Part shown: one piece after another, positions 3,417 to 20,867 of the stretch
Position numbering within the stretch: the first letter of the stretch is position 1
Layout: each line of letters begins with the position of its first letter
Source of the DNA: an uncultured Pirellulales bacterium
GTDB taxonomy: Bacteria; Planctomycetota; Phycisphaerae; Sedimentisphaerales; Anaerobacaceae
Reading direction: 5' to 3'
DNA: 26,646 nucleotides
NCBI GenBank assembly: GCA_964384565.1
Contig: CAYLMG010000007.1
Span: forward strand, 1 to 26,646
Notes under the pieces: generated by a model
Told to the model about the DNA's origin: nothing
Databases searched by the model: none
Seen by the model: only the letters and a program-made list of their open reading frames with translations
Position numbers and translations under genes: made by a program

Positions 3417-3905
3417 ATGGAAAATCAAAACTTAATTTTTAGGAATCGCGGTTTCACATTAATTGAGCTGATTGCTGTAATTGTGATAATTGCCATAGCG
3501 GCAATGCTTGCAATACCTATGTTCAGTTCGGCTGCAGGTATACAAATTCGTGCAGCAGCGGATATGATAGCAGCGGACCTCGAATATGCCAAGAGTATGG
3601 CAATCAGCAGGCAAAAAACATATACGGTGATTTTTGACGAATCTGCTGAAAGCTACAGAATCGAAGATGAGACCGGAATTATATCTCACCCTGTTACACA
3701 TAAAGATTATACGGTGAACTTCAAAACAGACGGCAGGGTCAACAAGGTGAATATTGTCGACGCTGATTTCGGCTCATCTGAGCAGGTATCCTTCACTTAT
3801 CTTGGAAGTCCTGATAATGGTGGAAGTGTCACTCTTTCTGCGGACACCAAAACTATGACGATTACAGTTGAGACGGTAACGGGTTATGTGTCAATTTCAC
3901 AGTGA
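3417..3905 (+). CDS. Minor pilin, GspH/FimT-like
   Basis: RG|FTLIELIAVIVIIAI motif followed by the FimT/GspH-like pattern AADLEYAKSMAISRQK..TVIF. Confidence 0.85.
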   Translation: MENQNLIFRNRGFTLIELIAVIVIIAIAAMLAIPMFSSAAGIQIRAAADMIAADLEYAKSMAISRQKTYTVIFDESAESYRIEDETGIISHPVTHKDYTVNFKTDGRVNKVNIVDADFGSSEQVSFTYLGSPDNGGSVTLSADTKTMTITVETVTGYVSISQ

Positions 3906-3975: not shown

Positions 3976-5157
3976 ATGATAAGCTGGAAATTAAAAACTC
4001 ACAATTACGGACCAATTGGCTTGGACATAGGACATAACAATATCAAGATGATTCAGTTGGAAACAAACGGTCCGATGATAAGTGTGGTAGATGCGGCTAA
4101 GGCTATTGTTGGTGTAAATATAAGCTCAGACTTTAAGCAAAGAAAAGAGTATATTACTTCAGCGATAAAAACGATGCTGGCAAAAGGTAATTTTAAAGGC
4201 CGCGAGGTAGTCTCATCTATGCCGAATGACCAGATAAGAATGACAAGCATTAGACTGGGACGGACGGAAACAGAAAAAATCGAAGAGATTTTACGAAGAG
4301 AGGTTACAAATCGTTTCGCCTACCATCCTGATAAGGACTCGATTAACTATATGTTTGCAGGCAGTGTTCGGCATGGTGATGAGATAAAAAATGAGGTAAT
4401 ATTGTTTGCCACGAAGGATGAGACAGTAAGAAATCATATCGATATGCTTGAACAGGTAGAACTCAGACCCGTTGGTATAGACCCGGTTCCTTGTGCTTTA
4501 TACAGAAGCTTTAGACGTATGCTCAGAAGGCAGGAAGATAGAGAGAAAACCGATGTTTTTGTTGATATCGGAGGCTCGTCTACTACAGTGGTTTTTGGCC
4601 GGGACGAAGATATCAGTTTTGTTAAGAATATAATGATTGGTACAGAAAACATTAATCGTGAAATTGCACAGAGGTTGGATATCGAAGTCAGTGAAGCAGA
4701 AATGCTGAGAAACAGGCTCTGGGCAAGAACACGGATTTCAAACACTGCGGATTCGGATGAGGGACTATTAGATAAGGATAATGACCTGACGCATCAGGAG
4801 GACATCGACCCTTCAACTCGCCAGATAATGGTGGATGCAATAGGCTCGGTTGCTGAGGAACTGGCAAAAGAGATATCGCTGTGCTTTAGATATTACACTG
4901 TTACCTTCAGAGGCAAGCGCGTAGAACGGGCTACTTTCACCGGCGGCGGCGCATACGAAAATATTTTGCTTAATGTATTGAGACGGCAGATGGCACTTTC
5001 GGTCGAAGTAGCCGAGCCTTTTGATGGCATTGATATAACGAAAGTAAACTTTAATGGCGACAGGCGCGGATTGCTTTGTGAATGGGCTGTTGCCGTGGGA
5101 CTGGGCCTGAAAAACTGGGAACCCGGTGAAAGTATCAGGAAAAAGGTTGAAAAATAG
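3976..5157 (+). CDS. pilM: Pilus assembly protein PilM (actin-like fold)
   Basis: Actin/FtsA-like motifs IGLDIG, VDIGG and FTGGGA, a C-terminal AVAVGLGLK, and position before pilN/pilO-like genes. Confidence 0.88.
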   Translation: MISWKLKTHNYGPIGLDIGHNNIKMIQLETNGPMISVVDAAKAIVGVNISSDFKQRKEYITSAIKTMLAKGNFKGREVVSSMPNDQIRMTSIRLGRTETEKIEEILRREVTNRFAYHPDKDSINYMFAGSVRHGDEIKNEVILFATKDETVRNHIDMLEQVELRPVGIDPVPCALYRSFRRMLRRQEDREKTDVFVDIGGSSTTVVFGRDEDISFVKNIMIGTENINREIAQRLDIEVSEAEMLRNRLWARTRISNTADSDEGLLDKDNDLTHQEDIDPSTRQIMVDAIGSVAEELAKEISLCFRYYTVTFRGKRVERATFTGGGAYENILLNVLRRQMALSVEVAEPFDGIDITKVNFNGDRRGLLCEWAVAVGLGLKNWEPGESIRKKVEK

Positions 5158-5197
5158 ACGCTGTATATCAAGTTATATTTAGTTTTAGGTTTTGTTT

Positions 5198-5872
5198 ATG
5201 AACGATATCGATCTTCTTCCACAATGGTATAAGAAGAACCAACGAAGGCGGATGGGCTACCGAGCGGAATGTTTTGCTTTGGGCTGCATACTTATGGTTA
5301 TGCTCGTGTGGGGCTTCCATACAAAGTCCATAGTCTCGAAAGCCGAAGCCGGACTCAATAAACTGCGGAGTCGCCATAGGGAATTAAAAGATGATGTACG
5401 TTCATTTACCGAGATGAAAAAGACTGCGGCGCTGCTGAAGAAAAAGGTCGATATTCTTAAGGAAATAGATTCCCGAATAGATGTTCCAGGTGTGCTTGCA
5501 GAGTTAAGCTTTTTAATTGATAAAGATATTGTGCTTAAAAAGGTCAAATTTGATGCGGAACAATTTAAGAGCCGACCGACTGGAAAAACTGCATCAGCAG
5601 GATTAAGAACGGCTCGGACTAGGAGCGGCAGTAATGAAGTTATATTATTCGGTGATGTTAGATTCACTGTCTTGATAAGCGGTGTCGCCGCAGACGGAAG
5701 TGATGTCGCCGAGCTTATTTGCAAATTAGAGGATTCGCCATATTTTTGCCAGGTTATACCGTTCTTTTCGAGGAACAAAAAAGCTAAGGCAGGCGGTACT
5801 GTCGATGAAGAGAAATTAAAGTCTACTGAATTTGAACTTGGCTGTTATCTGGCAAATTATAAAGAAGAATAA
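5198..5872 (+). CDS. pilN: PilN-like alignment protein
   Basis: N-terminal MNDIDLLP (variant of the INLLP PilM-binding motif), one TM segment, coiled coil, and a C-terminal ISGVA..LEDSPYF. ATG at 5198 is preferred over the TTG at 5192. Confidence 0.82.
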   Translation: MNDIDLLPQWYKKNQRRRMGYRAECFALGCILMVMLVWGFHTKSIVSKAEAGLNKLRSRHRELKDDVRSFTEMKKTAALLKKKVDILKEIDSRIDVPGVLAELSFLIDKDIVLKKVKFDAEQFKSRPTGKTASAGLRTARTRSGSNEVILFGDVRFTVLISGVAADGSDVAELICKLEDSPYFCQVIPFFSRNKKAKAGGTVDEEKLKSTEFELGCYLANYKEE

Positions 5873-5884: not shown

Positions 5885-6430
5885 ATGGTTTTCAGAACGA
5901 AACAGCAAATAATAATTTTCATTGCAGCCGGCGTGATGCTGATGGCTTTCGTGTTTTTTGTATATCTGCCTCTGGAGAAAAAAATGAAAGTTATTAAGTC
6001 TGAAACTGCTATGACAAGAGTTGTCATTGAAGAGGCAAACAGCCGGAAAAAGCAACTGCCTGTGCTCGAAAAACAGTTTCAACAAATGCAGAGTATAACA
6101 AAAGAATATGAGCTTAATATGCCGGAAAAAAGAGAGCTTGGTTCGTTTTTACATCAGATAGCTGATTTGATGAATGAGCATAACCTGAAAAATCAGTTTA
6201 TTGAACCAGGCAAAGAAGTAGAAACTGAAAAACTAAACTGTATACCTGTCAGCATAAAGTGCAAGGGTAAGCTGGCACAGATATTTGAATTTTATAAGTC
6301 CATACAGAATTTAAACAGGTTGATTCGGATTGAGCATGTAAGCCTGGAGAATAAGAGCAGTCCCGGCAGTGAGATCGATATGGAGACGAAGGCGGTTATT
6401 TATTACCGGCCGACAAAAGAAAAAGGTTAA
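5885..6430 (+). CDS. pilO: PilO/GspM-like alignment protein
   Basis: One N-terminal TM segment, coiled coil, LP...ELGSFLHQI, and IPVSIKCKG..QIFEFYKSIQNLNRLIRI. Confidence 0.85.
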   Translation: MVFRTKQQIIIFIAAGVMLMAFVFFVYLPLEKKMKVIKSETAMTRVVIEEANSRKKQLPVLEKQFQQMQSITKEYELNMPEKRELGSFLHQIADLMNEHNLKNQFIEPGKEVETEKLNCIPVSIKCKGKLAQIFEFYKSIQNLNRLIRIEHVSLENKSSPGSEIDMETKAVIYYRPTKEKG

Positions 6431-6438: not shown

Positions 6439-7059
6439 ATGAAAAGTAAGACACAAAAAAAACCAGGTACAGCTGTTGCGGCAGGCAGTGGTATTTTTGC
6501 TAAACTTAACGCGGAAAAGAAAAAAGCAATTACTGCGATGTGCCTGATTTTAGTGATGTCTATTATGTGGATTAAAGTCTTTGTCGGTAAATCCCCTCAG
6601 AGTGCCGAAGCAACTGACAACCTTGAAACATCCTCTTCTGAAGAGTTCTCTTCCGAGCAGGATGAACAAGGCATAGAGCCGGGAATATGTTATTTTGAAT
6701 TACCTAAAGTCGAAGGAAGAAATGATATTCTTACAAGAGACTTCTTTTCATCTGATAATAGGAACTTCTATCAAGGCTCCGGCAAAGAGATTAAACCTGT
6801 TTCTGAAAGTAACAACGACGAGGGGCTTATGCGAAGGATAAGTGCAAAACTGACTCTTGAGGCGATAGTTATGGGAGATAATTCTCAGGCTTTTATTAAT
6901 AATAAACTGTTTGGCGCTGGTGACAAATTGACCGTTGCCGAAGGTTCTGATGTGTATGAATGTGAAGTTGTAAAAATTGAAGAAACAGAAGTGACAATAA
7001 GATGCAGAGAAGGGACTATTACATTAAAGATTCTACAACCGTTGGAAGTGCTTAATTAA
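6439..7059 (+). CDS. PilP/GspC/MshK-like single-TM connector protein
   Basis: One TM segment, an acidic linker, and a C-terminal LEAIV....QAFINNKLFGAGD beta-domain. Located between pilO and the secretin. Confidence 0.6.
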   Translation: MKSKTQKKPGTAVAAGSGIFAKLNAEKKKAITAMCLILVMSIMWIKVFVGKSPQSAEATDNLETSSSEEFSSEQDEQGIEPGICYFELPKVEGRNDILTRDFFSSDNRNFYQGSGKEIKPVSESNNDEGLMRRISAKLTLEAIVMGDNSQAFINNKLFGAGDKLTVAEGSDVYECEVVKIEETEVTIRCREGTITLKILQPLEVLN

Positions 7060-7127: not shown

Positions 7128-8840
7128 ATGTATAAAGACAAATATTACAATGGCAAAATCAGAAAAGATATGTTTCTCTGGCTTATTGTAGTGGCGATGA
7201 TAGCTGCAATAGCTGTCGGTGGTGTTGATGAGGCTTCGTTGGAAAGAAGCGAGGAGACTTCGGTACCGAAGGCAAATGTGTCGAACAGCACAATAAGCAT
7301 TTCTGCTGATGGTACGATCCAGTCTATCAGCTTCAAGAAGGATGCCGAAATAAGGGATGTGCTTCGTTTCCTTGGAGCAAAGTATAATAAAAACATCGTT
7401 CCATCCCCTAAGGTTGAAGGCACAATCACAGTGACCAACCTTTATAACGTAACATTTGAGCAGACTATGGATGCTATTCTCGGGGACAATATCCAATGGG
7501 AACAAAGGGGTAATATCATTGAAGTTTACACCAAAGAAGACGTGAGCCGGATGAAATATACGGTCTTTGCGCTCGACTATATCACCGCTGATGAGGCGAA
7601 AAAGCTAATTGCGCCGGTTCTCAGCGACCAGGGTCAAATTGGGTCCACCACGGCAGCTGAGACTGGTGTCCCTACCGGTCAGTCTATCAGTTCAGGTACC
7701 GGCGGTGGGGACACTATGTCGCTGAAGGATACCATTGTGGTTTATGACTATGCTGAGAACATTAGAAGGGCTGAAGATGTGATAACTGCTATTGACGTCA
7801 GGCCAACACAGGTGCTTGTCGAGGCGAGTATCTTGAGCGCCAAACTAACCGAAAATATGCAATTCGGTATTGATTGGCAAACTCTCAAGGGTACCGCCGT
7901 GGCCAGCTTAACGAGTATCAGCTCCGGTGCTCCGGACTACTTTAAGAGTGCGGGTACTTCTCAGGTAGACAAGACAGGCGGCATGACAGTCGGCATTGCA
8001 TTTGGCGACGTAGGGGCATTTATTCGAGCGGTTGAAGAGGTTACCGATATAACCCTGTTGGCGAACCCGAAGATATTGACAGTCAATAAGCAGCTCGGTC
8101 AAGTCTATATCGGCGATAAATACGGCTACCGGGAGGGCGACACGTTTGATGCAGCAGGCAATCTGGTGGAGGGCCAAGTTAAGTTCCTCGATACAGGTAC
8201 TAAGCTTTCATTCAGGCCCTATATCGGCACCGAGGGCTATATCCGGGTGGATATTCATTCCAAAGACAGTTCCGGGTCAGTTCCGGCAAGTGGCATTCCT
8301 CAAGAGACGTCAGCGGAGCTGGTTTCTAACATAATGGTCAAAGACGGCCAGACTATTGTTATCGGCGGATTGTTCAGAGATAAAATTACAAACGCCAGAA
8401 CCCAGGTGCCGTTGCTTGGTGACATTCCGATTGTAGGAGCTGCATTTAGAGGTACGGCTGATAAGGTTGAGCGCCAAGAGATTATAGTTCTCCTTACACC
8501 TCATATTATAACGGAGCCAAGTCAAACTGAGGGAGAAGCAAGAGCGGATGATCTCCGTCGTAAAAGATTTGGAGCAAAGGAGGAATTGCAGTGGATAGGT
8601 AGAGCAAGATTGGCGGAAGACTGTTATGCAAAAGCTGCAAAATACTATCTTGAGGGTAATAATGAAGCTGCTATTGAACAGTTAGACGATGCACTTCGGC
8701 GATATCCGACATATTTGGAAGCATTAAGGCTGAAGGAAAGAATAATCAAGGAAACGAGTCCTGAAGACGCCAGGAGCATTGAGAGCATCATAATTGATAG
8801 CGTTGAGCGAAAAGATTCCCAGAGGTGGCTGAGAAGATAA
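7128..8840 (+). CDS. Secretin (GspD/PilQ family) with a C-terminal TPR-like extension
   Basis: N0/STN-like N-terminus, N3 domain, and the motifs QVLVEASI, LLANPKILTVN, VKDGQTIVIGGL, VPLLGDIPIVGAAF and IIVLLTPHII. Confidence 0.95.
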   Translation: MYKDKYYNGKIRKDMFLWLIVVAMIAAIAVGGVDEASLERSEETSVPKANVSNSTISISADGTIQSISFKKDAEIRDVLRFLGAKYNKNIVPSPKVEGTITVTNLYNVTFEQTMDAILGDNIQWEQRGNIIEVYTKEDVSRMKYTVFALDYITADEAKKLIAPVLSDQGQIGSTTAAETGVPTGQSISSGTGGGDTMSLKDTIVVYDYAENIRRAEDVITAIDVRPTQVLVEASILSAKLTENMQFGIDWQTLKGTAVASLTSISSGAPDYFKSAGTSQVDKTGGMTVGIAFGDVGAFIRAVEEVTDITLLANPKILTVNKQLGQVYIGDKYGYREGDTFDAAGNLVEGQVKFLDTGTKLSFRPYIGTEGYIRVDIHSKDSSGSVPASGIPQETSAELVSNIMVKDGQTIVIGGLFRDKITNARTQVPLLGDIPIVGAAFRGTADKVERQEIIVLLTPHIITEPSQTEGEARADDLRRKRFGAKEELQWIGRARLAEDCYAKAAKYYLEGNNEAAIEQLDDALRRYPTYLEALRLKERIIKETSPEDARSIESIIIDSVERKDSQRWLRR

Positions 8841-8865: not shown

Positions 8866-10413
8866 TTGAAAATACAGAATTTGATTTTTGGAGTGCTTGC
8901 TTTGATACCGGGGAGAAATTTTTATATCAAAGGCCGCTATTTTTCGAAGTTTTGTAGAATAGCGGTTATGGTCACAGCAATCGAGGTCTGTGTCCTTTTG
9001 GCTGTGTCCTTAGCCCTATGGAAGGATTCCAGCTTCGGAGGAGGCTGGCGTTTAGCTGTATTGGTTTGCAGCGTTACTGCAGCCGCTTGCGGAAGCTGGC
9101 TTGGGTGCGGATGGTATAAGCTCGTACGGGAAATCAAATCCATAGCCGGCAAGTTCGGAGATGAAAACATAGCTGTTTCTTATGTTAGCGAGCTGGAGGA
9201 GGGAAAGCAGACCGATAATGCAATAATGGTGAAATTGTATGAGGCAATTCGCAACCGTTTCAAAGGTAAAAATAGTTATATAGTTGACCTCGAGAATCAA
9301 ATAAAGGATTTGCAGCTTAACATTCGACTTTTGCAAAAGCAAAAGCTGAAAACAGAGTCCATTATCCACAGTGTCCGCGATGCTATTATTGTCATTGATG
9401 AGTATGATAAGTTGCTGATTGCAAATGAATCGGCTGGGAAACTATTCAACTTCGATTTTAAGAATTGCCAACAAAGGCCCATTACTGAATTAATTGATGA
9501 TAGCAAGAATAGCTTTGTGGAATTTCTACGCAGAAGCAGGAAAACCAGAGCACGACATACGAAATACGAACTTGAGATATTGAAAGGTGATGAATCGAAA
9601 ATATTCAGCTGCATAGCTTCCTGTATTCACGATGAAAAAAATAATATCTGCGGTGTTGTGGCTGTTCTCCACGATATCACGAAAGAAAAAGAAGTATCGC
9701 AGATGAAAAATGATTTTGTAAGCCATGTCTCTCACGAGCTAAAAACACCGCTTGCCTCTATCACTGCTTATTCGGAAATGTTACTGGAAGATGAAGCCGG
9801 CTCCGAAGAAATGCGCAAAGAATTCTGCACCGTTATTCAAAGTCAGGCACAGAGATTGAACCGGCTTATAGAGGACATTCTGAATGTTTCCCGCATAGAG
9901 TCGGGGCTGGTGAAAGTTGAGAAAAAACCGATAAGCCTCGCTGTGCTCATAAAAGAGCAAACGCGAATGCTTAAAAGCTATGCTGAAGAAAAAAACATCA
10001 CAATAGTAGAAAATGAGCTTATCGTTTACGACCAGGTTTATGCCGACAAAGATATGATTTCGCAGGTTATCGTAAATCTTCTGAGTAATGCAATCAAGTA
10101 TACACCTGCAGGTGGAACAGTAAAAATCGAAACCGAGGTGGACGAAATCTCGGGCCTGTCGCGGGTGAGCGTTACGGATACCGGTGTTGGAATTCCCCAA
10201 GATGATATCGACCACGTATTTGACAAGTTTTACAGGGTCGACGAGAACAAAAAGAAGGCAAAAGGAACCGGATTGGGACTCAACCTTGTCAAACAAATTA
10301 TTGAAAAAGTGCATAACGGACGAGTGTTTGTCAGAAGCAAAATGGGGATTGGAAGCACATTTGGTTTTGAATTGCCCTTGGCAAAAAAAGAAGTGGTTGG
10401 AGAGAAAATGTAG
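8866..10413 (+). CDS. Membrane histidine kinase (2 TM, coiled coil, PAS, HisKA, HATPase)
   Basis: H-box VSHELKTPL, N-box NLLSNAIKYT, G1 DTGVGI, F-box FDKFYRV, G2 GTGLGL, and a PAS-like region. The start codon is uncertain. Confidence 0.93.
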   Translation: MKIQNLIFGVLALIPGRNFYIKGRYFSKFCRIAVMVTAIEVCVLLAVSLALWKDSSFGGGWRLAVLVCSVTAAACGSWLGCGWYKLVREIKSIAGKFGDENIAVSYVSELEEGKQTDNAIMVKLYEAIRNRFKGKNSYIVDLENQIKDLQLNIRLLQKQKLKTESIIHSVRDAIIVIDEYDKLLIANESAGKLFNFDFKNCQQRPITELIDDSKNSFVEFLRRSRKTRARHTKYELEILKGDESKIFSCIASCIHDEKNNICGVVAVLHDITKEKEVSQMKNDFVSHVSHELKTPLASITAYSEMLLEDEAGSEEMRKEFCTVIQSQAQRLNRLIEDILNVSRIESGLVKVEKKPISLAVLIKEQTRMLKSYAEEKNITIVENELIVYDQVYADKDMISQVIVNLLSNAIKYTPAGGTVKIETEVDEISGLSRVSVTDTGVGIPQDDIDHVFDKFYRVDENKKKAKGTGLGLNLVKQIIEKVHNGRVFVRSKMGIGSTFGFELPLAKKEVVGEKM

Positions 10414-10460
10414 TTGCAGGAGGAGAAAAATTAAATTGCCTGAAACTATGAGGAGGCGGA

Positions 10461-10850
10461 ATGATGTCGGAAAGAAAGGTTTTAGTTGTAGATGATGAAA
10501 TTCACATTGTCCACGTTGTGGCGATAAAGCTTCGCAGCAATGGCTTCGAGGTCGTAGCAGCGTCGAATGGTGCCCAGGCATATGAGCTTGCCTGTTCAGA
10601 AAATCCTGATTTGATTGTTACAGACCTTCAAATGCCGGTTATGGATGGTTTTAGGCTTGTGGAAAAATTGAGGCAAAATGAGCAGACCAAAGAAATACCC
10701 GTGATTATGCTCACGGCAAGAAGTTTCAGCATAGAGCGGGAACAAAGGGAACAGCTAAATATATCGGACTGTCTCGGTAAACCATTCAGCCCTAAGGAGC
10801 TGTTAAAAAAAATCGAGGACATTCTATATCAAAAATCGGTAGCGGACTAA
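10461..10850 (+). CDS. Single-domain response regulator (receiver only)
   Basis: VLVVDD, LIVTDLQMP (phospho-Asp), IMLTA and KPF motifs; no output domain; GAGGAGG SD. Confidence 0.93.
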   Translation: MMSERKVLVVDDEIHIVHVVAIKLRSNGFEVVAASNGAQAYELACSENPDLIVTDLQMPVMDGFRLVEKLRQNEQTKEIPVIMLTARSFSIEREQREQLNISDCLGKPFSPKELLKKIEDILYQKSVAD

Positions 10851-10884
10851 CTATATCAGGCATTGCAAAAGGATTTGGGTTTCA

Positions 10885-12579
10885 GTGAAAATGTTGAAAA
10901 CAATCGAAAAAAACTTGGGCGAAATCCAAAAAGGTGAGCTTGAGACCTTTGGCCGGACAATAAATAAACTGGGGGCTGACTTTGCGGTATGTGATGCTGA
11001 CGGTCGGTTGCTCTTGACCTGCCAAGGTAATGTCTTTAAAACAGATTGGCAGACGATAGTAAATGATTGTTTAGCGAACTTCGATGCAGGTGGCCCGGAA
11101 GCAAACGAACGGGCTTTTCAAATTAATGATAGAATTGTGGCTGTATTTCTGAAGTTGAATTCCGATTCACCTGCTCATATTGCTTTGGTTGACATAGGTA
11201 AAGAGTTGCAACCGGCAAGAGAGCAAAAGCAAGAGGGCGATAAAGGGCATATTACAGGAAGAGAGGACAATCAATTATTATGTGAAATTTTTGGTGATAT
11301 GCTGACACTTCTGGCGAAAAGACTTCTCTCTGAGACAAAGTCCGAACAGCAAGCTGTGATGTTTAGCAACGAACTTTCGCAGGTCTATGAGGAACTGGCT
11401 CTTATTCATAAGTTGAGCACAAATATGAGAATCGGCAACTCGGATTCCAACTATCTGCAGATGGCCTGCGACTGCCTTAGAGAAATTGTCAACGTTGAGG
11501 GTATTGTGATTTTGCTTGACAAAAAGGCAGATGATGAAAAGCATTTGGTTCTTACTGCAGGAGCCGGCCTGATAGATATCGACAAGCCGATCAAGGAGAT
11601 GCTTTACGACAGGTTGGTGGCAGAGATAGAAATGGGAAATGAGGTTCTGCTCGACAGCGAAGTGGACAACCCATTCAAATATAATTGGCCTGATTACATA
11701 AAAAATATTATTGCAGTTCCTTTATATGGCAAAGACAGTCTTAGTACCGGTTTCTCTCAAACAGTTAGTAACAGCAACTGCATAATCGGCCTGATGGTCG
11801 CAATAAATAGAATTGATAAACCCGACTTTGACAGTGTCGATGTTAAGCTGTTTAATTCCGTGGCTAATGGTTGTGCAGTATTTGTTGAGAATGGCAGGCT
11901 CTTTGGCGATTTGAAAGAGTTGTTTATCGGGTCGTTAAAGGCACTTACCAGCAGCATTGATGCTAAGGACCAGTACACTCGAGGCCATTCAGAAAGGGTT
12001 GCTTTTGTATCACAATGGATTGCTGAGAGATACGCTGAGAATGAACACGTTGACGAATCGTTGATGTATAATATCTACCTCACAGGTCTGCTCCACGATA
12101 TAGGAAAAATTGGGATAAATGAAACCGTATTATGCAAAAAAGGAAAATTAACCACCGAAGAGCTTAACTGCATCAGGAGACATCCTTTAATCGGAGCAAA
12201 CATCTTGAGAGGTATAAAACAGATGCGTGATATTATACCGGGAGTATTATGCCACCACGAAAGAATGGATGGGGGAGGATATCCTAACGGATTAACCGCC
12301 GACAAAATTCCTTTATCAGGCAAAATAGTCGGGCTTGCCGATAGTTTTGATGCGATGACTTCGGCACGGGTTTATAGAAAAGCCTTAAGCTTAGAAGAGG
12401 CGATTGAGCAAATAAGAAAGGGAATGGGTACGCAGTTTGATGAAAAAGTGGCAACAATCTTTCTCAATAATGATATATATCATCTCTGGGATATTATTCA
12501 GGACGGCTTGGCTGACACCTTTTCCGAAAAAGAATTTTCATATTATGGCACTGAAGCAATAGGGACATTGGTCAAATGA
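10885..12579 (+). CDS. GAF + HD-GYP cyclic-dinucleotide phosphodiesterase
   Basis: TRGHSERV, LLHDIGK, HHERMDGGGYP, ADSFDAMT and R.YRKA are all present; GAF-like IIAVPL..AIN..F. The start may be the ATG at 10891. Confidence 0.93.
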   Translation: MKMLKTIEKNLGEIQKGELETFGRTINKLGADFAVCDADGRLLLTCQGNVFKTDWQTIVNDCLANFDAGGPEANERAFQINDRIVAVFLKLNSDSPAHIALVDIGKELQPAREQKQEGDKGHITGREDNQLLCEIFGDMLTLLAKRLLSETKSEQQAVMFSNELSQVYEELALIHKLSTNMRIGNSDSNYLQMACDCLREIVNVEGIVILLDKKADDEKHLVLTAGAGLIDIDKPIKEMLYDRLVAEIEMGNEVLLDSEVDNPFKYNWPDYIKNIIAVPLYGKDSLSTGFSQTVSNSNCIIGLMVAINRIDKPDFDSVDVKLFNSVANGCAVFVENGRLFGDLKELFIGSLKALTSSIDAKDQYTRGHSERVAFVSQWIAERYAENEHVDESLMYNIYLTGLLHDIGKIGINETVLCKKGKLTTEELNCIRRHPLIGANILRGIKQMRDIIPGVLCHHERMDGGGYPNGLTADKIPLSGKIVGLADSFDAMTSARVYRKALSLEEAIEQIRKGMGTQFDEKVATIFLNNDIYHLWDIIQDGLADTFSEKEFSYYGTEAIGTLVK

Positions 12580-12956
12580 GAATAAAAACACAGGATTATA
12601 ATGATGTTACGGTTGTCGAGCTTCAGGGTGAATTAGGCTCGGAGATTAACGAAACACTGAGAAAAACTATCAGCAACATTATCCAATCACCCTTTAGTGA
12701 GGATTTAAACCGGGAAGGATTAAGTGCTTCCATACCTAAAACCGGCATCGTACTTGATATGAGCAAGGTTGGATTTATTGATAGCGTTGGGCTGGAGTGT
12801 TTACTTTGGGTAAGAGACTATGGTGACGAAAACAATTGTCAGTTCAGGTTAGCCGGGCTTGATGAAAATTGCACCAAAATTCTTGAAATCACCAGACTTG
12901 AAAACGAATTCAGTTGTTATTCCGAGCTTTCTGAGGCCGTAAAAAGTTTGGCATAA
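12576..12956 (+). CDS. STAS-domain protein (anti-anti-sigma-like)
   Basis: VTVVELQGEL..IVLDMSKVGFIDSVGL..ILEITRL. ATGA overlap with the HD-GYP stop codon. Confidence 0.9.
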   Translation: MRIKTQDYNDVTVVELQGELGSEINETLRKTISNIIQSPFSEDLNREGLSASIPKTGIVLDMSKVGFIDSVGLECLLWVRDYGDENNCQFRLAGLDENCTKILEITRLENEFSCYSELSEAVKSLA

Positions 12957-12982
12957 GTAAAACACGAGAGAAATACAAAGAT

Positions 12983-14704
12983 ATGGGCGAGATATTTACT
13001 GAAAACAGAATGCAGCTTGGCGAGTTGCTTCTCAGCAACGGCATCGTTACAGCCGAGCAGATAGAAGATGTTCTTAGAGAGCAGAGCGGCAAAGGGCATA
13101 AAAAGCTTTTTGGTGAGCTTCTTGTAGAGAAAGGTTATTGTACGGATAACCAGATAGCTTCCGCTCTGGCTGAGGCCTATGGTGTGCCCTATGCTCAGGT
13201 CGGGCCGAAGTTATGTGATGCAAAAATTTTGGAAATCCTGCCGAGAGAGTTTCTTGAAAAACACCTCGTTCTGCCGTTGTTTAAGGTTTATGATTTACTG
13301 ACAGTTGCAGTAAGTGAGCCGACTAATGTCTTTTTAATTGATGAAATAGAACGTCTTAGCAGCTGCAAGGTACAGATAGTCTGTGCAACTGTCAAAGATA
13401 TTAAAAACACTATACAGACCTATTTGCCTGCGGCTAATGTTTTTGTTATCGATGATATCATCGATGAGGAAGGTCTGGAAGATTTTACCCTCATAGAAAA
13501 TATCACGGAAGATATAACTAATCTCGAGGAGATAGCCGGCCAGTCGCCTGTTGTGAAACTGGTAAATTATCTTCTCTATAACGCCGTTCAGGAAAATGCG
13601 AGCGATATTCACATCGAGCCCGACGAGAGAAAATTGCGGGTTAGATACAGGGTTGATGGTAATTTGTATGAAAAAATGTCCCCGCCTTATCAGATGCATT
13701 CAGCACTTGTTTCAAGAATAAAGATTATGGCTGAACTGGACATAGCACAGAGACGCTTACCACAGGATGGAGGAATCCACGTCCTGATAGAGGGTAAGGC
13801 TGTCGATCTTAGAGTGTCAATTATGCCGACTAATTTCGGGGAAAAGGTGGTTGTAAGAGTCATCAATCCTCAGAATATCATCTTTAATCTTGAGTCACTG
13901 GGTTTTGCCTATAAAAGTCTCGAGATATATCGAAAAATAATGCAGGCTCCAAATGGAATCATTTTAGTGACGGGTCCTACAGGCTCCGGAAAGAATACAA
14001 CTCTTTACGCCACCCTTTTGGAGTTAAACCGCGAAAATGTGAACATATGCACGGTCGAGGACCCTATCGAATGTAATGTCTCAGGCATCAATCAGTTTCA
14101 GGTCATTGACAGCATTGGTTTTAGCTTCTCAACAGCCCTGAGGAGTTTGTTGAGACAGGACCCGGACATAATAATGGTGGGTGAGATTCGGGATAAAGCT
14201 ACTGCGACTATTGCTATTCAGGCTGCGTTGACCGGCCATCTTGTTTTTTCGACTTTGCATACGAATGATGCGCCGGCAGCAGTAACACGTCTGATAGATT
14301 TGGATGTGCCTCCTTTTCTTGTAAGTGCTTCCCTGATAGCCGTGCTGGCACAGAGATTGGTACGAAAGGTATGTCCAAGTTGCAAGTCGGAATATGTACC
14401 CTCCGCGAGCATTAAAAATATAGTTGCAAAAATGGGTGGTGAAATAGAGAAGTATTATCGGGGTTTAGGCTGTAGGGAGTGCAGAAATACCGGTTGTTCC
14501 GGCCGTATAGCGGTTCATGAGTTATTTTTACCCGGCGAGAAAATTAACGAGATGATTAATCAGGGGGCAAGTCTGAAGAAGCTTAGACAGCAGGCTCTGA
14601 AAGATGGTATGGTTCCCCTTCAACTGGATGGAATCGAGAAAGTAAGAGCCGGCATTGTGCCTGTCGAGGAAGTATTAAGAGTAACTCAGCCGGAAGAAAA
14701 TTAA
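12983..14704 (+). CDS. GspE/PilB-family assembly ATPase with an N-terminal MshEN domain
   Basis: ASDIHIEP, RIKIMAELDIAQRRLPQDG, Walker A GPTGSGKNT, Asp box TVEDPIE, Walker B DPDIIMVGEIRD, His box TGHLVFSTLHTN, and a tetracysteine motif. Confidence 0.96.
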   Translation: MGEIFTENRMQLGELLLSNGIVTAEQIEDVLREQSGKGHKKLFGELLVEKGYCTDNQIASALAEAYGVPYAQVGPKLCDAKILEILPREFLEKHLVLPLFKVYDLLTVAVSEPTNVFLIDEIERLSSCKVQIVCATVKDIKNTIQTYLPAANVFVIDDIIDEEGLEDFTLIENITEDITNLEEIAGQSPVVKLVNYLLYNAVQENASDIHIEPDERKLRVRYRVDGNLYEKMSPPYQMHSALVSRIKIMAELDIAQRRLPQDGGIHVLIEGKAVDLRVSIMPTNFGEKVVVRVINPQNIIFNLESLGFAYKSLEIYRKIMQAPNGIILVTGPTGSGKNTTLYATLLELNRENVNICTVEDPIECNVSGINQFQVIDSIGFSFSTALRSLLRQDPDIIMVGEIRDKATATIAIQAALTGHLVFSTLHTNDAPAAVTRLIDLDVPPFLVSASLIAVLAQRLVRKVCPSCKSEYVPSASIKNIVAKMGGEIEKYYRGLGCRECRNTGCSGRIAVHELFLPGEKINEMINQGASLKKLRQQALKDGMVPLQLDGIEKVRAGIVPVEEVLRVTQPEEN

Positions 14705-14743: not shown

Positions 14744-15922
14744 ATGCCTGTATTAGTACCAAAAAAAACCAAAAAGTCTGACGCTTCAAGGAGCCCAAGA
14801 CAGCGAAAAACATCTATTTATACGATGGTAACGAGCAGCCCTTCTATGGTAGAGCGCTCCTCGAAGTCTAAATTAAAGCGATTAGATCTGATAATGTTTA
14901 CAACTCAGTTATCGGTGATGCTTGACAGTGGAGTTATACTTAGCGATGCACTCGATGCCATTGACGGGCAAACTAATGAGGGCACGTTTAGGACAATAAT
15001 CAGAGGTGTTAACACATCTGTTAAAAACGGCGATAGCTTTTCAAATGCTTTGGCCGGGTATCCGAAGGTATTTAGTTCGATGTTTATTAGTATGGTCAGA
15101 GCCTCTGAAGCTTCGGGTAGAATGTCTGAAATGCTGCATGTGCTCGCAGGGTATCTTGAATTTGAATTCGATATCCGCAAACGCCTCAAAGGAGCGCTTG
15201 CGTATCCTCTTATGATGGCTCTGATTGCTGTGGTTGCAACTTGCTTGTTGTTTTTTTTCGTACTGCCGAGGTTTATGAAGATTTACGAATCCAGAGGAGC
15301 AGCTTTACCGAAGCTTACTCAGTTGTTGATAGATATTAGTAACCTGTTTCGAAATTTTCAGTTCCTCACTATTATGTTTACAGTTGTTGTTTTTGTCGCT
15401 GTGGCAGTTTATAAATGGTCTAAAACTATTAATGGCCGGCGCTTAATAGATTATGCAAAAATCCATATGCCAATCCTGGGCTCAATGTTTGTGGATATGA
15501 TTATAGCTCGAAGTATGAGAATTATAGCAACGATGATTTCTACCGGTGTTAGTCTTTTAGAGACGGTAGAAGTTGTACACGGTGCCACTAAAAATTATTA
15601 TTTCCAGCAGCTTTGGAGCTGGGTCGATGAAAAAATACGAAACGGCTATCAATTGACGGAAGCTATGCAGATTTATCCGCAGAGCGGCTTAATAGAACCG
15701 GCTATTTTGCAAATGCTCAAAGCCGGTGAAAAAAGCGGTAACATTGGAAAGGTAAGCAATAAAATTTCACTCTTTTACGAAAAGAAACTTGAAAGCTCAA
15801 TCGTCTCGGCCACAAGGATTTTAGAGCCGCTTTTGTTATTAATTATAGGAGGCATTATAGGAATTATAGTCATAGCTCTGTTGCTGCCGGTATTCAGAAT
15901 ATCTTCAATTATCGCCCATTAG
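14744..15922 (+). CDS. GspF/PilC-family inner-membrane platform protein
   Basis: FTTQLSVMLDSGV, ASEASG, ALAYP, AGEKSG and LEPLLL..IG....ALLLPVF. Confidence 0.95.
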   Translation: MPVLVPKKTKKSDASRSPRQRKTSIYTMVTSSPSMVERSSKSKLKRLDLIMFTTQLSVMLDSGVILSDALDAIDGQTNEGTFRTIIRGVNTSVKNGDSFSNALAGYPKVFSSMFISMVRASEASGRMSEMLHVLAGYLEFEFDIRKRLKGALAYPLMMALIAVVATCLLFFFVLPRFMKIYESRGAALPKLTQLLIDISNLFRNFQFLTIMFTVVVFVAVAVYKWSKTINGRRLIDYAKIHMPILGSMFVDMIIARSMRIIATMISTGVSLLETVEVVHGATKNYYFQQLWSWVDEKIRNGYQLTEAMQIYPQSGLIEPAILQMLKAGEKSGNIGKVSNKISLFYEKKLESSIVSATRILEPLLLLIIGGIIGIIVIALLLPVFRISSIIAH

Positions 15923-15941: not shown

Positions 15942-15967
15942 TCAGGCTCAAAAATCGAGCCTGATTA
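15942..15967 (+). terminator. Probable terminator or hairpin closing the filament operon
   Basis: Perfect 8-bp stem TCAGGCTC/GAGCCTGA 20 nt after the stop codon; weak U-tract. Confidence 0.55.
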
Positions 15968-16146: not shown

Positions 16147-16174
16147 TTGACAAAAGTTCCCCCCAACGTATAAT
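16147..16174 (+). promoter_or_regulatory. Sigma70-type promoter
   Basis: Perfect hexamers: TTGACA-N16-TATAAT. Confidence 0.8.
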
Positions 16175-16316: not shown

Positions 16317-17699
16317 ATGAAAACTAAAAAAATGTTAACAATTTCTGTTTTGGCTCTGGGTCTGATTCTCTGTCACGCCTGTATATGCGAGGCAGAAGAA
16401 ATGGGTACTGCTTTTACCTACCAAGGCCGGCTGATGGACAAAAACAAGCCCGCAGATGGACCCTATAGCTTCCAGTTCAGACTCTATGACAGCAACGACC
16501 CCTGCACCGGCACTTTGTTAGAAAGTCCGATTGATATAAACGACCTTGATGTCATTGATGGGCACTTCGTGGTGGAACTGGATTTTGGCAGCGGAATCTT
16601 CGACGGCAATGCAGTCTGGCTCGAAACAAGGGTAGTTGAGAGTCCCATGGGCAGTGACCCTGCTACACTCAGCCCAATGCTGGAGCTGACACCAACACCC
16701 TATGCGCTTTATGCAAAGACCGCAGGGGGTGATGATGACTGGATGGTCTCCGGGAATGATATGTACTCAATTCCCTCCGGTAATGTCGGTATCGGGACGA
16801 CAGAGCCGCAGAAAAAGCTGGAAATAGCCAGCGATAGTTTTACAGACCTTGGAATCGGTTTAAGGATTAATACGCCGGGTGGAACGAGCTGGAGTATTAA
16901 TAATGATGTAGGGATTTTCAAGATAGATGAACACGCTTCCTGCGGCCCGGAGTTTGAAAACAACACAAGAATTGCAATAGTCGGCAATTGCATTGGCTCA
17001 CCATACGGCGGCAACGTCGGTATTGGAACGACGAGCCCTGAGACAAAGTTGCACGTATATGAATCATCATCAAGTGATGTTTATATGTCCGTGGAAGCAA
17101 GCAGTAGTGATGGTGAGGCAGGTGTACGACTAAAAAATCCAGCAGGTGGCTGGGATGTCTTTGCCAATGATGAGAATGGTGACTTTGGAATCGCTCATGC
17201 ATTAGCAGAGCGAGTTCTGACTATTAAAAATTCGACCGGCAATGTCGGCATAGGCACAGAGAGTCCGGACGAAAAATTACATATTTCCGGCAACGTCAAA
17301 ATCGTCGATGGGAACCAAGGGGCTAATAAAGTTTTGACATCAGATGCCAACGGCGTGGGAAGCTGGCAAGCACCTCCAGCTTCAGGTCTGCCTTCGGGAG
17401 TTATTGTGATGTGGTCGGGCAGTATAGCAGGTATTCCTACGGGCTGGGCGTTATGCGACGGAAATAATGGTACACCCGATTTAAGAGATAGATTTATTGT
17501 AGGTGCCGGTAACTCATATACAATAGGGGAACAAGGAGGTTCTACTTCTCATGCTCATACTGGTGCAACTAGTACGGGTATTTGGTTGTCTTCTGGATGT
17601 GGTCAAGGTTGTGAAAATGGCCACTATCACACTTTCACAACTGACACTAGTGAGCACAGACCGCCATATTACGCTCTGGCGTTAATTATGAAATTGTGA
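16317..17699 (+). CDS. Secreted tail-fibre-like repeat protein with a C-terminal tail-collar-like domain
   Basis: Sec-like signal peptide, TAFTYQGRL N-domain, three GNVGIGT..P..KL repeats, and C-terminal GVIVMWSG..IPTGWALCDG..GTPDLRDRFIVGAG. AAGGAGA SD. Confidence 0.8.
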   Translation: MKTKKMLTISVLALGLILCHACICEAEEMGTAFTYQGRLMDKNKPADGPYSFQFRLYDSNDPCTGTLLESPIDINDLDVIDGHFVVELDFGSGIFDGNAVWLETRVVESPMGSDPATLSPMLELTPTPYALYAKTAGGDDDWMVSGNDMYSIPSGNVGIGTTEPQKKLEIASDSFTDLGIGLRINTPGGTSWSINNDVGIFKIDEHASCGPEFENNTRIAIVGNCIGSPYGGNVGIGTTSPETKLHVYESSSSDVYMSVEASSSDGEAGVRLKNPAGGWDVFANDENGDFGIAHALAERVLTIKNSTGNVGIGTESPDEKLHISGNVKIVDGNQGANKVLTSDANGVGSWQAPPASGLPSGVIVMWSGSIAGIPTGWALCDGNNGTPDLRDRFIVGAGNSYTIGEQGGSTSHAHTGATSTGIWLSSGCGQGCENGHYHTFTTDTSEHRPPYYALALIMKL

Positions 17700-18250: not shown

Positions 18251-18351
18251 ATTATTTAATTAATATATAATGTTTTAACAGGCTTATGCCGATTTTTTAT
18301 GTAGTATGAAAGCAGCTATTGTAAAAGGCCTTGAAAGGATATAGTTGGAAG

Positions 18352-18618
18352 ATGCTAACGACGGAACAAAAGGGAAAAATAATCAAGGATTTTGAAATCC
18401 ACAAGGGCGACACGGGTTCGCCGTTCGTGCAGATAGCTCTCCTGACAGAAAGGATTAATGAGCTGACAGAGCACCTGAAGGTACATAAAAAAGACCATTC
18501 TTCTCGCCGCGGCCTGCTCAAAATGGTTGGAAACAGATCGGCACTGCTTAAATATGTCAATGAGAATGACCCACAGAAGTATCGTGAAATTATAAACCGG
18601 CTTGGTTTAAGAAAATAA
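18352..18618 (+). CDS. rpsO: 30S ribosomal protein S15
   Basis: [48 protein letters not shown] at 18352 follows an AAGGA SD. Confidence 0.98.
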
Positions 18619-18628
18619 GAAAGAGAAA

Positions 18629-18705
18629 GAGTTCGTAGTTTGTAGTTGAAAGCTCATAAGTTGCATGCGTTGTGTTGTGAACTCTCAACTACCAACTACG
18701 GGCTC
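18629..18705 (+). other. Long hairpin in the rpsO-pnp spacer (candidate RNase III substrate)
   Basis: 18629-18649 pairs with 18685-18705 (21 nt, two G-U pairs, one mismatch), with further inner pairing. Confidence 0.65.
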
Positions 18706-18725
18706 GAAGCTATTGAGGAAAATAT

Positions 18726-20867
18726 ATGTCGAATGTATGCAGAACTCAGCGTGAAATTGGGGGCGAAATCTTATCTATCGAAACGGGCAGGATTGCAAAA
18801 CAGGCTGACGGTGCTGTTATTGTCAGATATGGAGACACTATTGTTCTTGTCACTGCCGTAACAGCCCCACCTCGGTCGGAAGATATAGATTTTTTTCCGC
18901 TCAGTGTCGAATACCGTGAACAACACAGTGCCGCAGGTAAATTCCCCGGCGGTTTTATTAAACGAGAGGGCAGGCCCAGCACAAAAGAAATCCTGACCGC
19001 CAGAATGATAGACAGACCTATTCGCCCTTTGTTCCCTGAAGGTTATTGTCAGGAAGTGCAGATAATAGCAAATGTTTTAAGCTTTGACGGCGACAATAAT
19101 CCCGATATCCTTGCTATGATTGGTGCCAGTGCTGCTCTGACTATCAGCAGGATTCCATTTTTAGGACCTATCGGTTCCTGCAGATTAGGCAGAATAGATG
19201 GCCAATATGTTGTCAATCCCACACATAAACAGCTCGAACAAAGCGACTTGAATCTTCTCCTTGGCGGCCGAAAAGAAGCGATGAATATGATTGAGGTGGG
19301 AGCTAAGGAGGTATCAGAACAGGTAATTGCAGATGCTGTTGCACAGGCGCACAAGACCGTCGGCGAAATTTGCGACATGATAGAGGAGCTTCGCGGAAAA
19401 GTGGGCGTTGAAAAAGAGATTATCCTTTTGGAACAAAATGAAGAGCTTTATTCGAAGATTCGCTCACAGATAGCTGACAAGCTGCTTGAGCTAAAGCAGA
19501 TACATAAAAAGAAAGAGCGAAATAAAGCAGTAAACGAGTTGTTCGAACAGGTTACAAGCCAGTACTGTGAAGCCCAGGAACCTGACGCACAGTTGTATGA
19601 TACTGCTCTTGTTAAAAGGACTCTGGCGAGAATTGAGGGTGAGGTAGTCAAAGAAATGCTTCTTGAGGGCAAACGAATTGATGGCAGAGGTTTTGATGAT
19701 ATTCGTCCTGTAAGTTGTGAAGTAGGTATCTTTCCGAGAACTCACGGCTCAGCGGTTTTCTCGCGCGGCGAAACGCAGGCTCTGGTCAGTGTAACACTCG
19801 GAACCATCAGGGATGCTCAAATTATTGACGGCCTGCTGGAAGAATATTCTCAAAACTTTACGTTCCATTACAATTTCCCCCCGTATTCTGTAGGAGAGGT
19901 CAAGCCGGTTCGCGGTCCCGGAAGAAGAGAAATAGGACACGGCTCTCTTGCAGAACGGGCTCTTGAGGCTATGAGGACGTCGGACGAAGAATTTGCCTAT
20001 ACAGTAAGACTTGTTTCGGACATAACCGAATCGAATGGTTCAAGCTCCATGGCATCGGTTTGTGCCGGTTCTCTGGCTCTTATGGATGCCGGTGTGCCTA
20101 TAAAGAGGGCTGTTGCCGGTATTTCAATCGGAATGATAAGCGATGGTAAAGGCAAATATAATCTGCTGACAGATATTATGGGGGAAGAAGACCACTTTGG
20201 CGAGATGGATTTCAAAGTAGCAGGTACCAGAGACGGCATCACCGCTGTCCAGCTTGATATCAAGGCCGAAGGACTGGCGCACAAGGTTATGGTCGAGGCT
20301 CTCGAGCGTGCTAAAAAAGCCCGTCTGAAAATCTTGGATATTATGGAACAGACCATTAAAGAGCCGAGAGCCGAGTTAAGCAAATATGCGCCGAAACTTA
20401 TTAGTATTGAAATTGACCCCGAATTAATAGGAAAAGTAATCGGGCCGGGCGGCAAAACAATAAAGGCCCTTCAGGACCAGACCGGAACGAAAATTGAAAT
20501 CGAAGAAGATGGAACCATATATATAAGCTGCCTCGGCGGTGAAGGCCACCTCGAGGCAAAAGAAATCATCGACTCGATGACACAGCCGCCTGTTGTCGGT
20601 AAAATATACAAAAACTCAAAAGTCGTTTCTGTAAAAGACTTTGGAATATTTGTTGAAATCGCTCCCGGTGTCGAAGGACTCTGCCACATAAGCGAATTAG
20701 CCAACGAGTATGTCAAAAACATTGACCAGGTTTGCAAAGTTGGTGATGCTGTAGCTGTAAAACTAATGATGATTGATGAACAGGGCAGGCTGAAATTATC
20801 TCGCAAGGCTGCTCTTGCGGAGTTGAACAAACAAAAAGAGCCTGCCTTAAAACCAACCCGTAAGTAA
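18726..20867 (+). CDS. pnp: Polyribonucleotide nucleotidyltransferase (PNPase)
   Basis: DFFPLSVEYRE, RREIGHG, SNGSSSMAS and GEMDFKVAGT, plus KH and S1 domains; classic position after rpsO. Confidence 0.99.
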   Translation: MSNVCRTQREIGGEILSIETGRIAKQADGAVIVRYGDTIVLVTAVTAPPRSEDIDFFPLSVEYREQHSAAGKFPGGFIKREGRPSTKEILTARMIDRPIRPLFPEGYCQEVQIIANVLSFDGDNNPDILAMIGASAALTISRIPFLGPIGSCRLGRIDGQYVVNPTHKQLEQSDLNLLLGGRKEAMNMIEVGAKEVSEQVIADAVAQAHKTVGEICDMIEELRGKVGVEKEIILLEQNEELYSKIRSQIADKLLELKQIHKKKERNKAVNELFEQVTSQYCEAQEPDAQLYDTALVKRTLARIEGEVVKEMLLEGKRIDGRGFDDIRPVSCEVGIFPRTHGSAVFSRGETQALVSVTLGTIRDAQIIDGLLEEYSQNFTFHYNFPPYSVGEVKPVRGPGRREIGHGSLAERALEAMRTSDEEFAYTVRLVSDITESNGSSSMASVCAGSLALMDAGVPIKRAVAGISIGMISDGKGKYNLLTDIMGEEDHFGEMDFKVAGTRDGITAVQLDIKAEGLAHKVMVEALERAKKARLKILDIMEQTIKEPRAELSKYAPKLISIEIDPELIGKVIGPGGKTIKALQDQTGTKIEIEEDGTIYISCLGGEGHLEAKEIIDSMTQPPVVGKIYKNSKVVSVKDFGIFVEIAPGVEGLCHISELANEYVKNIDQVCKVGDAVAVKLMMIDEQGRLKLSRKAALAELNKQKEPALKPTRK

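Follow-up and report, generated by a model that had tools for sequence, protein, structure and literature searches.

A cassette of four signaling genes lies between the secretin and the assembly ATPase of a type IV pilus-like machine in the window (the whole 26,646-nucleotide stretch of DNA analyzed here, from a member of the Phycisphaerae). Judged from its genes, this cassette most likely serves the pilus motor as a built-in, so far undescribed controller, a reading prompted by the position of the block within the operon and by the recurrence of its scaffold across the phylum with the enzyme swapped. Control of pilus ATPases by c-di-GMP is known, and the cassette is a new variant of it. In the fuller scheme, toward which we lean if only just, the machine carries a control module that acts through c-di-GMP: a membrane PAS kinase (HK) would sense a signal and phosphorylate a stand-alone receiver (REC); the phosphorylated receiver would, through direct contact, control the GAF-linked c-di-GMP enzyme of the neighboring gene; this HD-GYP phosphodiesterase (PDE) would lower c-di-GMP near the machine; the PilB-type ATPase would read the local pool through its MshEN domain; and a STAS protein, co-produced with the enzyme, would serve as a motor-bound switch or adaptor. 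Within this chain we infer the control of the enzyme by the receiver, the contact made by STAS and the direction in which piliation changes.

The genes all lie on the forward strand and begin, at the upstream boundary of the cassette, with a PilQ/GspD-like secretin (7128–8840; Pfam Secretin, E 2e-35). The kinase (8866–10413) has two N-terminal transmembrane helices, which would anchor it in the membrane, followed by PAS, HisKA and HATPase_c domains (from Pfam and the translation), and the receiver (10461–10850; Response_reg, E 6.7e-28) has no output domain. The predicted PDE (10885–12579; HD_5/HD-GYP, PF13487, E 1.6e-32) and the SpoIIAA/RsbV-like STAS protein (12576–12956; Pfam STAS, E 2.2e-13) precede the ATPase (12983–14704; T2SSE, E 2.5e-129; MshEN, E 1.1e-14), and a PilC/GspF platform protein (14744–15922; T2SSF, E 3.5e-50) is the final gene of the apparent operon. 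The sequence-only reading had placed HK, REC, GAF/HD-GYP and STAS genes between secretin and ATPase, and Pfam, together with fold comparison for the GAF domain, confirms this. Its description of tight packing, with gaps of at most 47 bp and one ATGA overlap, is also borne out at the junctions (secretin–HK 25 bp, HK–REC 47 bp, REC–PDE 34 bp, the PDE stop and STAS start sharing ATGA at 12576–12579, STAS–ATPase 26 bp, ATPase–PilC 39 bp), taking the TTG at 8866 as the HK start; the other candidate, an in-frame ATG at 8968, would stretch the secretin–HK gap to 127 bp. A good ribosome-binding site (GAGGAGG) lies upstream of REC. No intergenic terminator was found within the block; a hairpin (15942–15964) follows the PilC stop, and a perfect sigma-70-like promoter (16147–16174) lies beyond it. 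A search for sigma-54 promoters gave 11 matches against 13.5 expected, which amounts to nothing found, and the sequencing runs that carry the sequence are DNA only, from marine-sediment metagenomes, with no RNA runs among them.

Gene order was counted in 80 loci, one per species, with PDE identities of ~50–58%. PDE-STAS-ATPase occurs in 74 of them, 58 of which keep the PDE/STAS overlap; the secretin precedes HK in 56/80, and the full order secretin-HK-REC-PDE-STAS-ATPase-PilC is present in 52/80. Other families of the class show the cassette order too, at 38–40% PDE identity, as do the Tepidisphaerales. This conservation is far beyond chance, and since it is so strong the objection that the order is not conserved fails. 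It also bears on the suggestion that the signaling genes are mere passengers, held in place by history and devoted to cell-wide signaling unrelated to the filament. REC-PDE pairs do occur in five genomes without this machine, and may thus also have a global role, and genome G038 has HK-REC-PDE followed by CheX-REC-FapA in place of the motor. Against this, the cassette keeps its place between secretin and ATPase in different classes despite sequence divergence of at least 60%, the overlap and short gaps are conserved, and of the roughly eight PilB-like ATPases encoded in the genome (~2 Mb) only one carries the cassette, with no such signaling genes at the seven paralogous loci; we consider the passenger explanation very improbable. 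Planctomycetota carry many pilus-type systems.

Comparison beyond the class indicates which parts of the block are constant. Several classes of the phylum share the scaffold HK-REC-[slot]-STAS-PilB-PilC, on which ground we rejected the notion of a cassette specific to this class. The slot is occupied by GAF-HD-GYP in Phycisphaerae, in Gimesia by GAF-GGDEF whose GGEEF site is intact, by both HD-GYP and GGDEF in one family (f57) and by a gene with a GGDEF domain at two of the three f33 loci, and it is empty in two lineages (L113 and L127), where the order is HK-REC-STAS-ATPase and REC abuts STAS. Where an enzyme is present it always lies between REC and STAS, with REC directly before it. The PDE is therefore no fixed core; it fills an exchangeable slot that elsewhere holds a GGDEF enzyme, both enzymes, or nothing. 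That enzymes making and breaking one nucleotide can fill the same position points to c-di-GMP. The earlier nomination of the cassette as a new module stands in that it is real and without a described match, but it is phylum-wide and not special to this window; likewise, its not being a recognized module agrees with the literature on STAS, HD-GYP and c-di-GMP with pili, including planctomycete pili, where we found no description (many subscription papers lay outside the coverage).

The kinase and receiver have the residues expected of a two-component pair (H-box His and N/G boxes in the one; the DD…D…T…K set in the other). The H-box and ATP-binding boxes are kept in 52 HK sequences, whose nearest NCBIfam models (PnpS/PhoR/WalK-like) all score below cut-off, and a Pfam search of HK residues 1–170 gave no significant match. 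Residues D11, D12, D55, T85 and K107 of REC are invariant in 25 aligned orthologues, and the receiver set is conserved across 73 sequences; these intact residues fit the proposed pair, in which HK would pass its phosphoryl group to REC.

What the receiver acts upon is less straightforward. HK-REC and STAS-ATPase are constant across the phylum around a variable slot, and the empty slot of L113 and L127 suggests that REC may have another target. The core could then run from HK through REC to STAS/PilB, phosphorylated REC acting directly on STAS or the ATPase, as CheY-like proteins act on such motors, and the enzyme being a separate add-on under its own GAF and N-terminal sensor; the enzyme does have sensor-type domains of its own (Roadblock-like and GAF), and PilB-type motors are targets of stand-alone receivers such as PilG and PixE. 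This arrangement is possible, but we rate it as clearly less probable than control through the enzyme, given that REC always directly precedes the enzyme where one exists and, where the block breaks up, remains beside the PDE and apart from STAS/ATPase (six loci and G038, in which the REC ORF ends at the PDE start and the genes abut). Loss of STAS, ATPase, PilC and PilM likewise leaves the REC-PDE pair unbroken. The pairings first proposed fit the comparative data, with REC and PDE retained together and STAS tracking the ATPase; speaking against the scheme, L113 and L127 have REC and no enzyme, and one relative (L110) has PDE-STAS-ATPase and neither HK nor REC. Taken together, the exchange of slot enzymes, the joint loss of STAS and ATPase and the persistence of REC-PDE suggest c-di-GMP as the currency of the module and STAS as its motor-linked element.

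The PDE comprises a Roadblock/LC7-like domain (~residues 12–105), a long helix (125–181), a GAF domain (~182–340) and HD-GYP (~350–530) and, as the sequence-only reading had it, no REC domain of its own. Its HD-GYP domain is intact and the PDE apparently active: the full H…HD…H…HHExxDGxGYP…D set of metal and signature residues is present, with H368, H404-D405, H433, H457-H458-E459, D462, G463, G465-Y466-P467 and D486 invariant in 29 orthologues, and the fold matches 4mcw, 4r8z and 9rbz. The GAF domain is not significant by Pfam (E 0.05) and is confirmed at the level of the modeled fold, residues 182–340 matching many GAF structures at Z 13–15. The best structural match is PmGH of Persephonella marina (4mcw; Z 18.2 over residues 170–542), and the sequence alignment with the PmGH GAF runs from residue 297; PmGH shares the GAF-HD-GYP architecture but has neither the Roadblock-like domain nor the long coiled helix, and is not known to be tied to a pilus operon, a receiver or STAS. 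The N-terminal domain gave no significant Pfam match (no Robl_LC7) and is poorly conserved (mean column identity 32%); its fold model, a confident one (pLDDT 82, pTM 0.78), best matches Roadblock2, MglB and MP1-p14 at Z 10–11, with weak AFDB matches. RpfC/RpfG of Xanthomonas is likewise a two-component system with an HD-GYP phosphodiesterase output affecting pilus-dependent motility, but the RpfG receiver is fused to its HD-GYP domain, whereas here REC is separate, the HD-GYP domain is joined to Roadblock-like and GAF domains, and the genes lie inside the pilus operon.

The putative reader of the c-di-GMP pool, the ATPase, has Geobacter PilB and V. cholerae MshE as its best PDB matches and scores below both the PilB (TIGR02538; 591.3 bits, cut-off 675.65) and GspE (578, cut-off 630) models. 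Walker A and B, Asp and His boxes and the tetracysteine motif are all present, with an unusual Walker A (GSGKNT) that reads GKN and not GK[ST] in 65 of 67 orthologues; a tie between GKN and the cassette was rejected, as outgroup cassette carriers have GKS. At residues 11–64 lie two tandem 24-residue repeats (canonical form RLGxx(L/V/I)(L/V/I)xxG(L/V/I)(L/V/I)xxxxLxxxLxxQ, twice) with the Leu/Gly core conserved, as at the start of the known MshE/PilB/PilF MshEN (GSPII) receptors (PMC5013675, PMC12002112; PDB 5htl), whose c-di-GMP enzymes are encoded elsewhere and not, as here, in the cassette. The earlier view of this domain as c-di-GMP-binding gains from a score above the NCBIfam NF053729 cut-off (49.3 vs. 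38) and from the intact hydrophobic/Gly core, in which the guanine-contacting Gly backbone positions are invariant in both motifs. It loses from the replacement of both signature Arg residues (Gln in 64/67 in repeat 1, Leu in 67/67 in repeat 2, so that RLG becomes QLG and LLG/LFG) and of the second Gln, at the end of repeat 2, by Ala in 50/67. The core accounts for more than 10-fold of affinity and Arg9 and Gln32 for at most 5-fold (PMC5013675), and small deviations from the motif can abolish binding in the GSPII-A domain of PilF (PMC12002112); we infer that this Arg-poor domain may bind c-di-GMP.

The same substitutions could be read as a switch of the enzyme and the altered MshEN to another cyclic dinucleotide such as 3′3′-cGAMP, which MshEN binds weakly (PMC5013675), and the top PDB sequence match of the PDE is the cGAMP-specific V-cGAP3 (5z7c; E 3e-33), marginally better than PmGH (E 8e-33). 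We give this little credence, since sister lineages hold GGDEF with an intact GGEEF site in the same slot, the genome encodes GGDEF proteins (3–4 genes) and the guanine-contacting Gly positions do not vary.

STAS lies directly upstream of the ATPase in all loci that have it; no locus has STAS and no ATPase, and the two are lost jointly. Were STAS instead an ordinary anti-sigma-factor antagonist, an RsbW-type kinase from another locus would phosphorylate its Ser70, and STAS would control transcription, not the motor. The serine of its D-S-x-G-L-E motif is indeed kept in 68 of 74 sequences, the protein scores 51.8 bits against the "anti-sigma factor antagonist" model TIGR00377 (just below the cut-off of 53.45), and the genome encodes one RsbW-like kinase and two SpoIIE/PP2C phosphatases. 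Yet a partner switch takes STAS and serine together with a cognate RsbW/SpoIIAB kinase and a PP2C phosphatase, and no anti-sigma kinase, phosphatase or sigma factor was found in the cluster of any lineage examined; the sole RsbW-like gene adjoins its own, different STAS on another contig; and Gly replaces the serine in 6/74. With STAS also fixed before the ATPase and lost with it, we regard this role as improbable. STAS proteins can meet c-di-GMP enzymes, as in the HptB-HsbR-HsbA-HsbD pathway of Pseudomonas aeruginosa (PMC5085249), where STAS HsbA lies downstream of a phosphorelay and meets the diguanylate cyclase HsbD, with effects on motility and biofilm; HsbA works in a classical partner switch with the dedicated kinase/phosphatase HsbR and its target is not a pilus ATPase, whereas no such partner is encoded here. 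Complex prediction with STAS as the partner of PDE, ATPase residues 1–180 and REC scored 0.61; swapping out the PDE as a control gave 0.67, so the score is not specific and speaks neither for nor against binding. Mirror-tree partial correlations over 36 loci (STAS-PDE 0.45, STAS-ATPase 0.07, HK-ATPase 0.58) are not used as evidence, the method being weak and confounded by controlling on PilC.

A likeness for a motor-linked STAS is PilB-PilZ-FimX of Xanthomonas citri (PMC8389850; PDB 7lkm/7lko), in which a small adaptor joins the MshEN-like N-domain of PilB (which our ATPase matches in sequence; 7lko, E 6e-10) to a c-di-GMP-handling protein. There the adaptor has a PilZ fold and its partner is a degenerate GGDEF-EAL sensor, whereas here they would be STAS and an apparently active HD-GYP (or GGDEF) enzyme; and the X. 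citri genes do not share one operon with a kinase and receiver, as the genes here appear to. A bolder version of our scheme, which we hold only tentatively and think rather unlikely, makes STAS a new kind of PilB partner that docks on the Arg-poor MshEN and tethers the slot enzyme, creating a private, phosphorelay-gated c-di-GMP pool at the motor. If true, the module would be a counterpart of PilZ-FimX built on STAS, in which the enzyme swap would determine the sign of the response (hydrolase in Phycisphaerae, synthase in Gimesia).

That c-di-GMP controls pilus and secretion ATPases is known; it is still debated how a messenger spread through the whole cell can elicit a specific response at one place. 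The cassette brings to this a possible role for STAS at a pilus motor, for which we found no precedent in the literature, and, in the exchange of hydrolase and synthase within one slot, a natural experiment on local signaling and the sign of the response. Gimesia has cultured species, and its form of the module may make the system testable in culture.

The gene order claimed in the sequence-only reading proved to be conserved. A phosphodiesterase scan returned 541 related stretches. All genes of the window were mapped onto the best 80 of these, each a locus from a different species; within these best 80 of 541, phosphodiesterase, STAS and ATPase genes are consecutive in 74 loci (with the phosphodiesterase and STAS genes overlapping in 58 of the 74), the full run from secretin through histidine kinase (HK), receiver (REC), phosphodiesterase, STAS and ATPase to PilC is present in 52, and REC precedes the phosphodiesterase wherever the extent of the contig allows. 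Three other families of the class have the same order at 38–40% phosphodiesterase identity, with a GKS Walker A motif and, in two of the three, a retained arginine in MshEN repeat 1. The cassette is real and conserved. A sample of 401 genomes from across the phylum yielded the cassette-specific N-terminal half of the phosphodiesterase in 11 genomes, every one of them belonging to the same order or class. A TPR gene (PilF/PilW pilotin-like) separates secretin from kinase in about 17 of the 80 loci; it is absent from the window but also occurs in four out-group loci (L002:6794–8023, L107:9828–11111, L109:8151–9212, and L110:9828–11033).

The source MAG (1.96 Mb, 81% complete, with relatives in Phycisphaerae and Sedimentisphaerales) holds the cassette in one long plus-strand gene array on contig C7. 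By Pfam, this array comprises prepilin-type genes (129–554, 718–1152, 1192–1812, and 3417–3905), PilM (3976–5157), PilN (5192–5872), PilO (5885–6430), a gene with no Pfam assignment (6439–7059), the secretin (7128–8840), the four signaling genes, an MshEN-containing T2SSE ATPase (12983–14704), and PilC/T2SSF (14744–15922). Read directly, the junctions from secretin to PilC are, in order, 25, 47, and 34 bp, an ATGA overlap, 26 and 39 bp, the kinase start being ambiguous (TTG at 8866 or ATG at 8968). A strong intrinsic terminator (606–631, 11-bp stem, 8 GC) lies directly 3′ of the first pilin gene, and no further intergenic terminator-like site was found on the plus strand between it and a hairpin just 3′ of PilC (15942–15964); the next unit begins at a perfect 12/12 sigma-70-type promoter (16147–16174) upstream of the gene at 16317–17699. 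This layout would be compatible with a single transcript, short of proof. A search of sequencing runs located the window sequence in marine-sediment metagenomes and found no RNA run containing it. Further along (18331–23152), rpsO-pnp precedes a PilS/PilR-like pair: a short cytoplasmic HisKA kinase (21017–21772) and a sigma-54 activator (21785–23152) that combines REC and HTH_8 domains. This block remains beside the cassette at many loci, also where the motor has been lost, and a search for sigma-54 promoter motifs gave no excess over chance. The right end of the window, where GC skew changes, holds a large minus-strand N6-adenine DNA methylase (24405–26426) with Eco57I-like and specificity-like domains, of the fused restriction-modification type.

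The kinase has two N-terminal hydrophobic helices separated by a very short loop, then PAS, HisKA, and HATPase_c domains, with H-box and ATP-binding boxes conserved across 52 sequences. The receiver (10461–10850) comprises 129 residues with no output domain, and D11, D12, D55, T85, and K107 are invariant. In the phosphodiesterase (10885–12579), all HD-GYP signature residues are present and invariant in 29 orthologues, and matches in the PDB are V-cGAP3 and PmGH. The earlier assignment of a GAF domain to this protein was correct despite being missed by Pfam alone (E 0.05): a model of the whole protein (mean pLDDT 68.5) has PmGH as its top structural match (Z 18.2), and residues 182–340 match many GAF domains (Z 13–15). 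Residues 1–150, folded alone (pLDDT 82, pTM 0.78), match Roadblock/LC7, MglB, and MP1-p14 best (Z 10–11), which suggests with moderate confidence a Roadblock-like fold for this predicted domain; a search for sequence-family support found none. A conserved tail, YG.xA.G.L (about residues 553–564, 12540–12579), ends the protein right at the start of the STAS gene. In the STAS protein (12576–12956), S70, the serine typical of SpoIIAA, is retained by 68 of 74 sequences and replaced by glycine in the remaining six; the window copy carries a 15-residue insertion (residues 37–51, 12684–12728) not found in most orthologues.

The ways in which the block breaks up inform on its internal partnerships. 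Six loci run from REC and phosphodiesterase directly into rpsO-pnp, retaining a pilin-like gene, REC, and phosphodiesterase amid housekeeping genes. Five of these genomes were checked, and their best ATPase matches reach 39–44% identity (versus 68–79% for orthologues), their PilM matches 21–26%, and their STAS matches, which are partial, 28–41%; machine and STAS have therefore been lost together. A complete sister-family genome (L107) has pilins, secretin, TPR, HK, REC, and phosphodiesterase, then CheX, a second receiver, and FapA; here the CheX (a CheY-P phosphatase), receiver, and FapA-family genes (L107:14988–17554) stand in place of STAS-ATPase-PilC. A complete genome of another family (L110) has secretin, TPR, phosphodiesterase, STAS, ATPase, and PilC with neither kinase nor receiver. 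STAS lies directly upstream of the ATPase in every locus examined and was never seen without it. Because most carriers are MAGs, absences rest on incomplete genomes, while the deletions at locus level are seen directly. The pairings proposed from sequence agree with these loci, in that REC remains linked to the enzyme and STAS to the motor.

Beyond the class, the scaffold persists while the enzyme varies. In a phylum sample of 121 genomes (completeness at least 90%), eleven genomes besides that of the window have an ATPase homologue at E ≤ 1e-150; ten were examined, with STAS directly upstream of it in all ten and HK-REC before STAS in most. Two complete genomes of 7.2–7.4 Mb fill the slot between REC and STAS with a membrane-anchored GAF-GGDEF protein whose GGEEF site is intact, a form also present in nine loci (six labeled Gimesia). 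Family f57 has a GAF-HD-GYP gene there, with a GAF-GGDEF gene after it, and two of the three family f33 loci have a GGDEF-domain gene. The slot is empty in L113 and L127, their REC directly adjoining STAS. The constant parts are HK-REC and STAS-PilB-PilC, and the c-di-GMP enzyme between them is exchangeable and of either sign. This exchange makes c-di-GMP the likely currency of the cassette, with the MshEN-bearing ATPase as its probable, putative reader. The V-cGAP3 match would suit cGAMP as the nucleotide instead, a reading weakened by a slot that accepts c-di-GMP enzymes of either sign. In the enzyme-less lineages, REC might act directly on STAS or the ATPase, a route that the pairing of REC with enzyme and STAS with motor also permits.

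The putative reader is nearest to Geobacter PilB, Thermus PilF, and Vibrio MshE, scores slightly below the NCBIfam PilB and GspE equivalog cut-offs, and over residues 11–64 passes a curated MshE-related c-di-GMP motif model (49.3 bits, cut-off 38). The signature arginine of the MshEN repeats is Gln in repeat 1 (64 of 67 sequences) and Leu in repeat 2 (67 of 67), and the final Gln of repeat 2 is Ala in 50 of 67; the Leu/Gly core is conserved. The ATPase of the GGDEF lineage has a canonical repeat 1 (RLG...Q) and, as in the window, a degenerate repeat 2. MshEN mutants show losses of >10-fold at the hydrophobic core and ≤5-fold at Arg9 and Gln32 (PMC5013675), and small motif deviations can abolish binding in PilF GSPII-A (PMC12002112); the ATPase here is accordingly a putative c-di-GMP binder. 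In 65 of 67 orthologues from the order, Walker A (13973–13999) is GSGKNT, with Asn occupying the usual Mg-binding Ser/Thr position; outgroup cassette carriers have GKS. The genome encodes about eight full-length PilB/GspE-type ATPases (contigs C6, C9, C12 (two), C46, C50, C63, and the window) and several PilT-like ATPases, unusually many filament systems for roughly 2 Mb. Among the seven others, Walker A is GKT or GKS throughout and an RLG repeat occurs in three; none was found to have kinase, receiver, HD-GYP, or STAS neighbors.

The nearest described logic is that of Xanthomonas PilB-PilZ-FimX, whose small adaptor connects the PilB N-domain with a c-di-GMP protein (PMC8389850). Further related systems are RpfC/RpfG, the MshE/PilF receptors, and the STAS protein HsbA, which acts with the cyclase HsbD (PMC5085249); none of these joins the parts in the way seen here, and no published description of such a module was found in the literature searched. 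The cassette most likely represents a new form of pilus-motor control by c-di-GMP that includes a STAS component; the wiring of the whole cassette is inferred.
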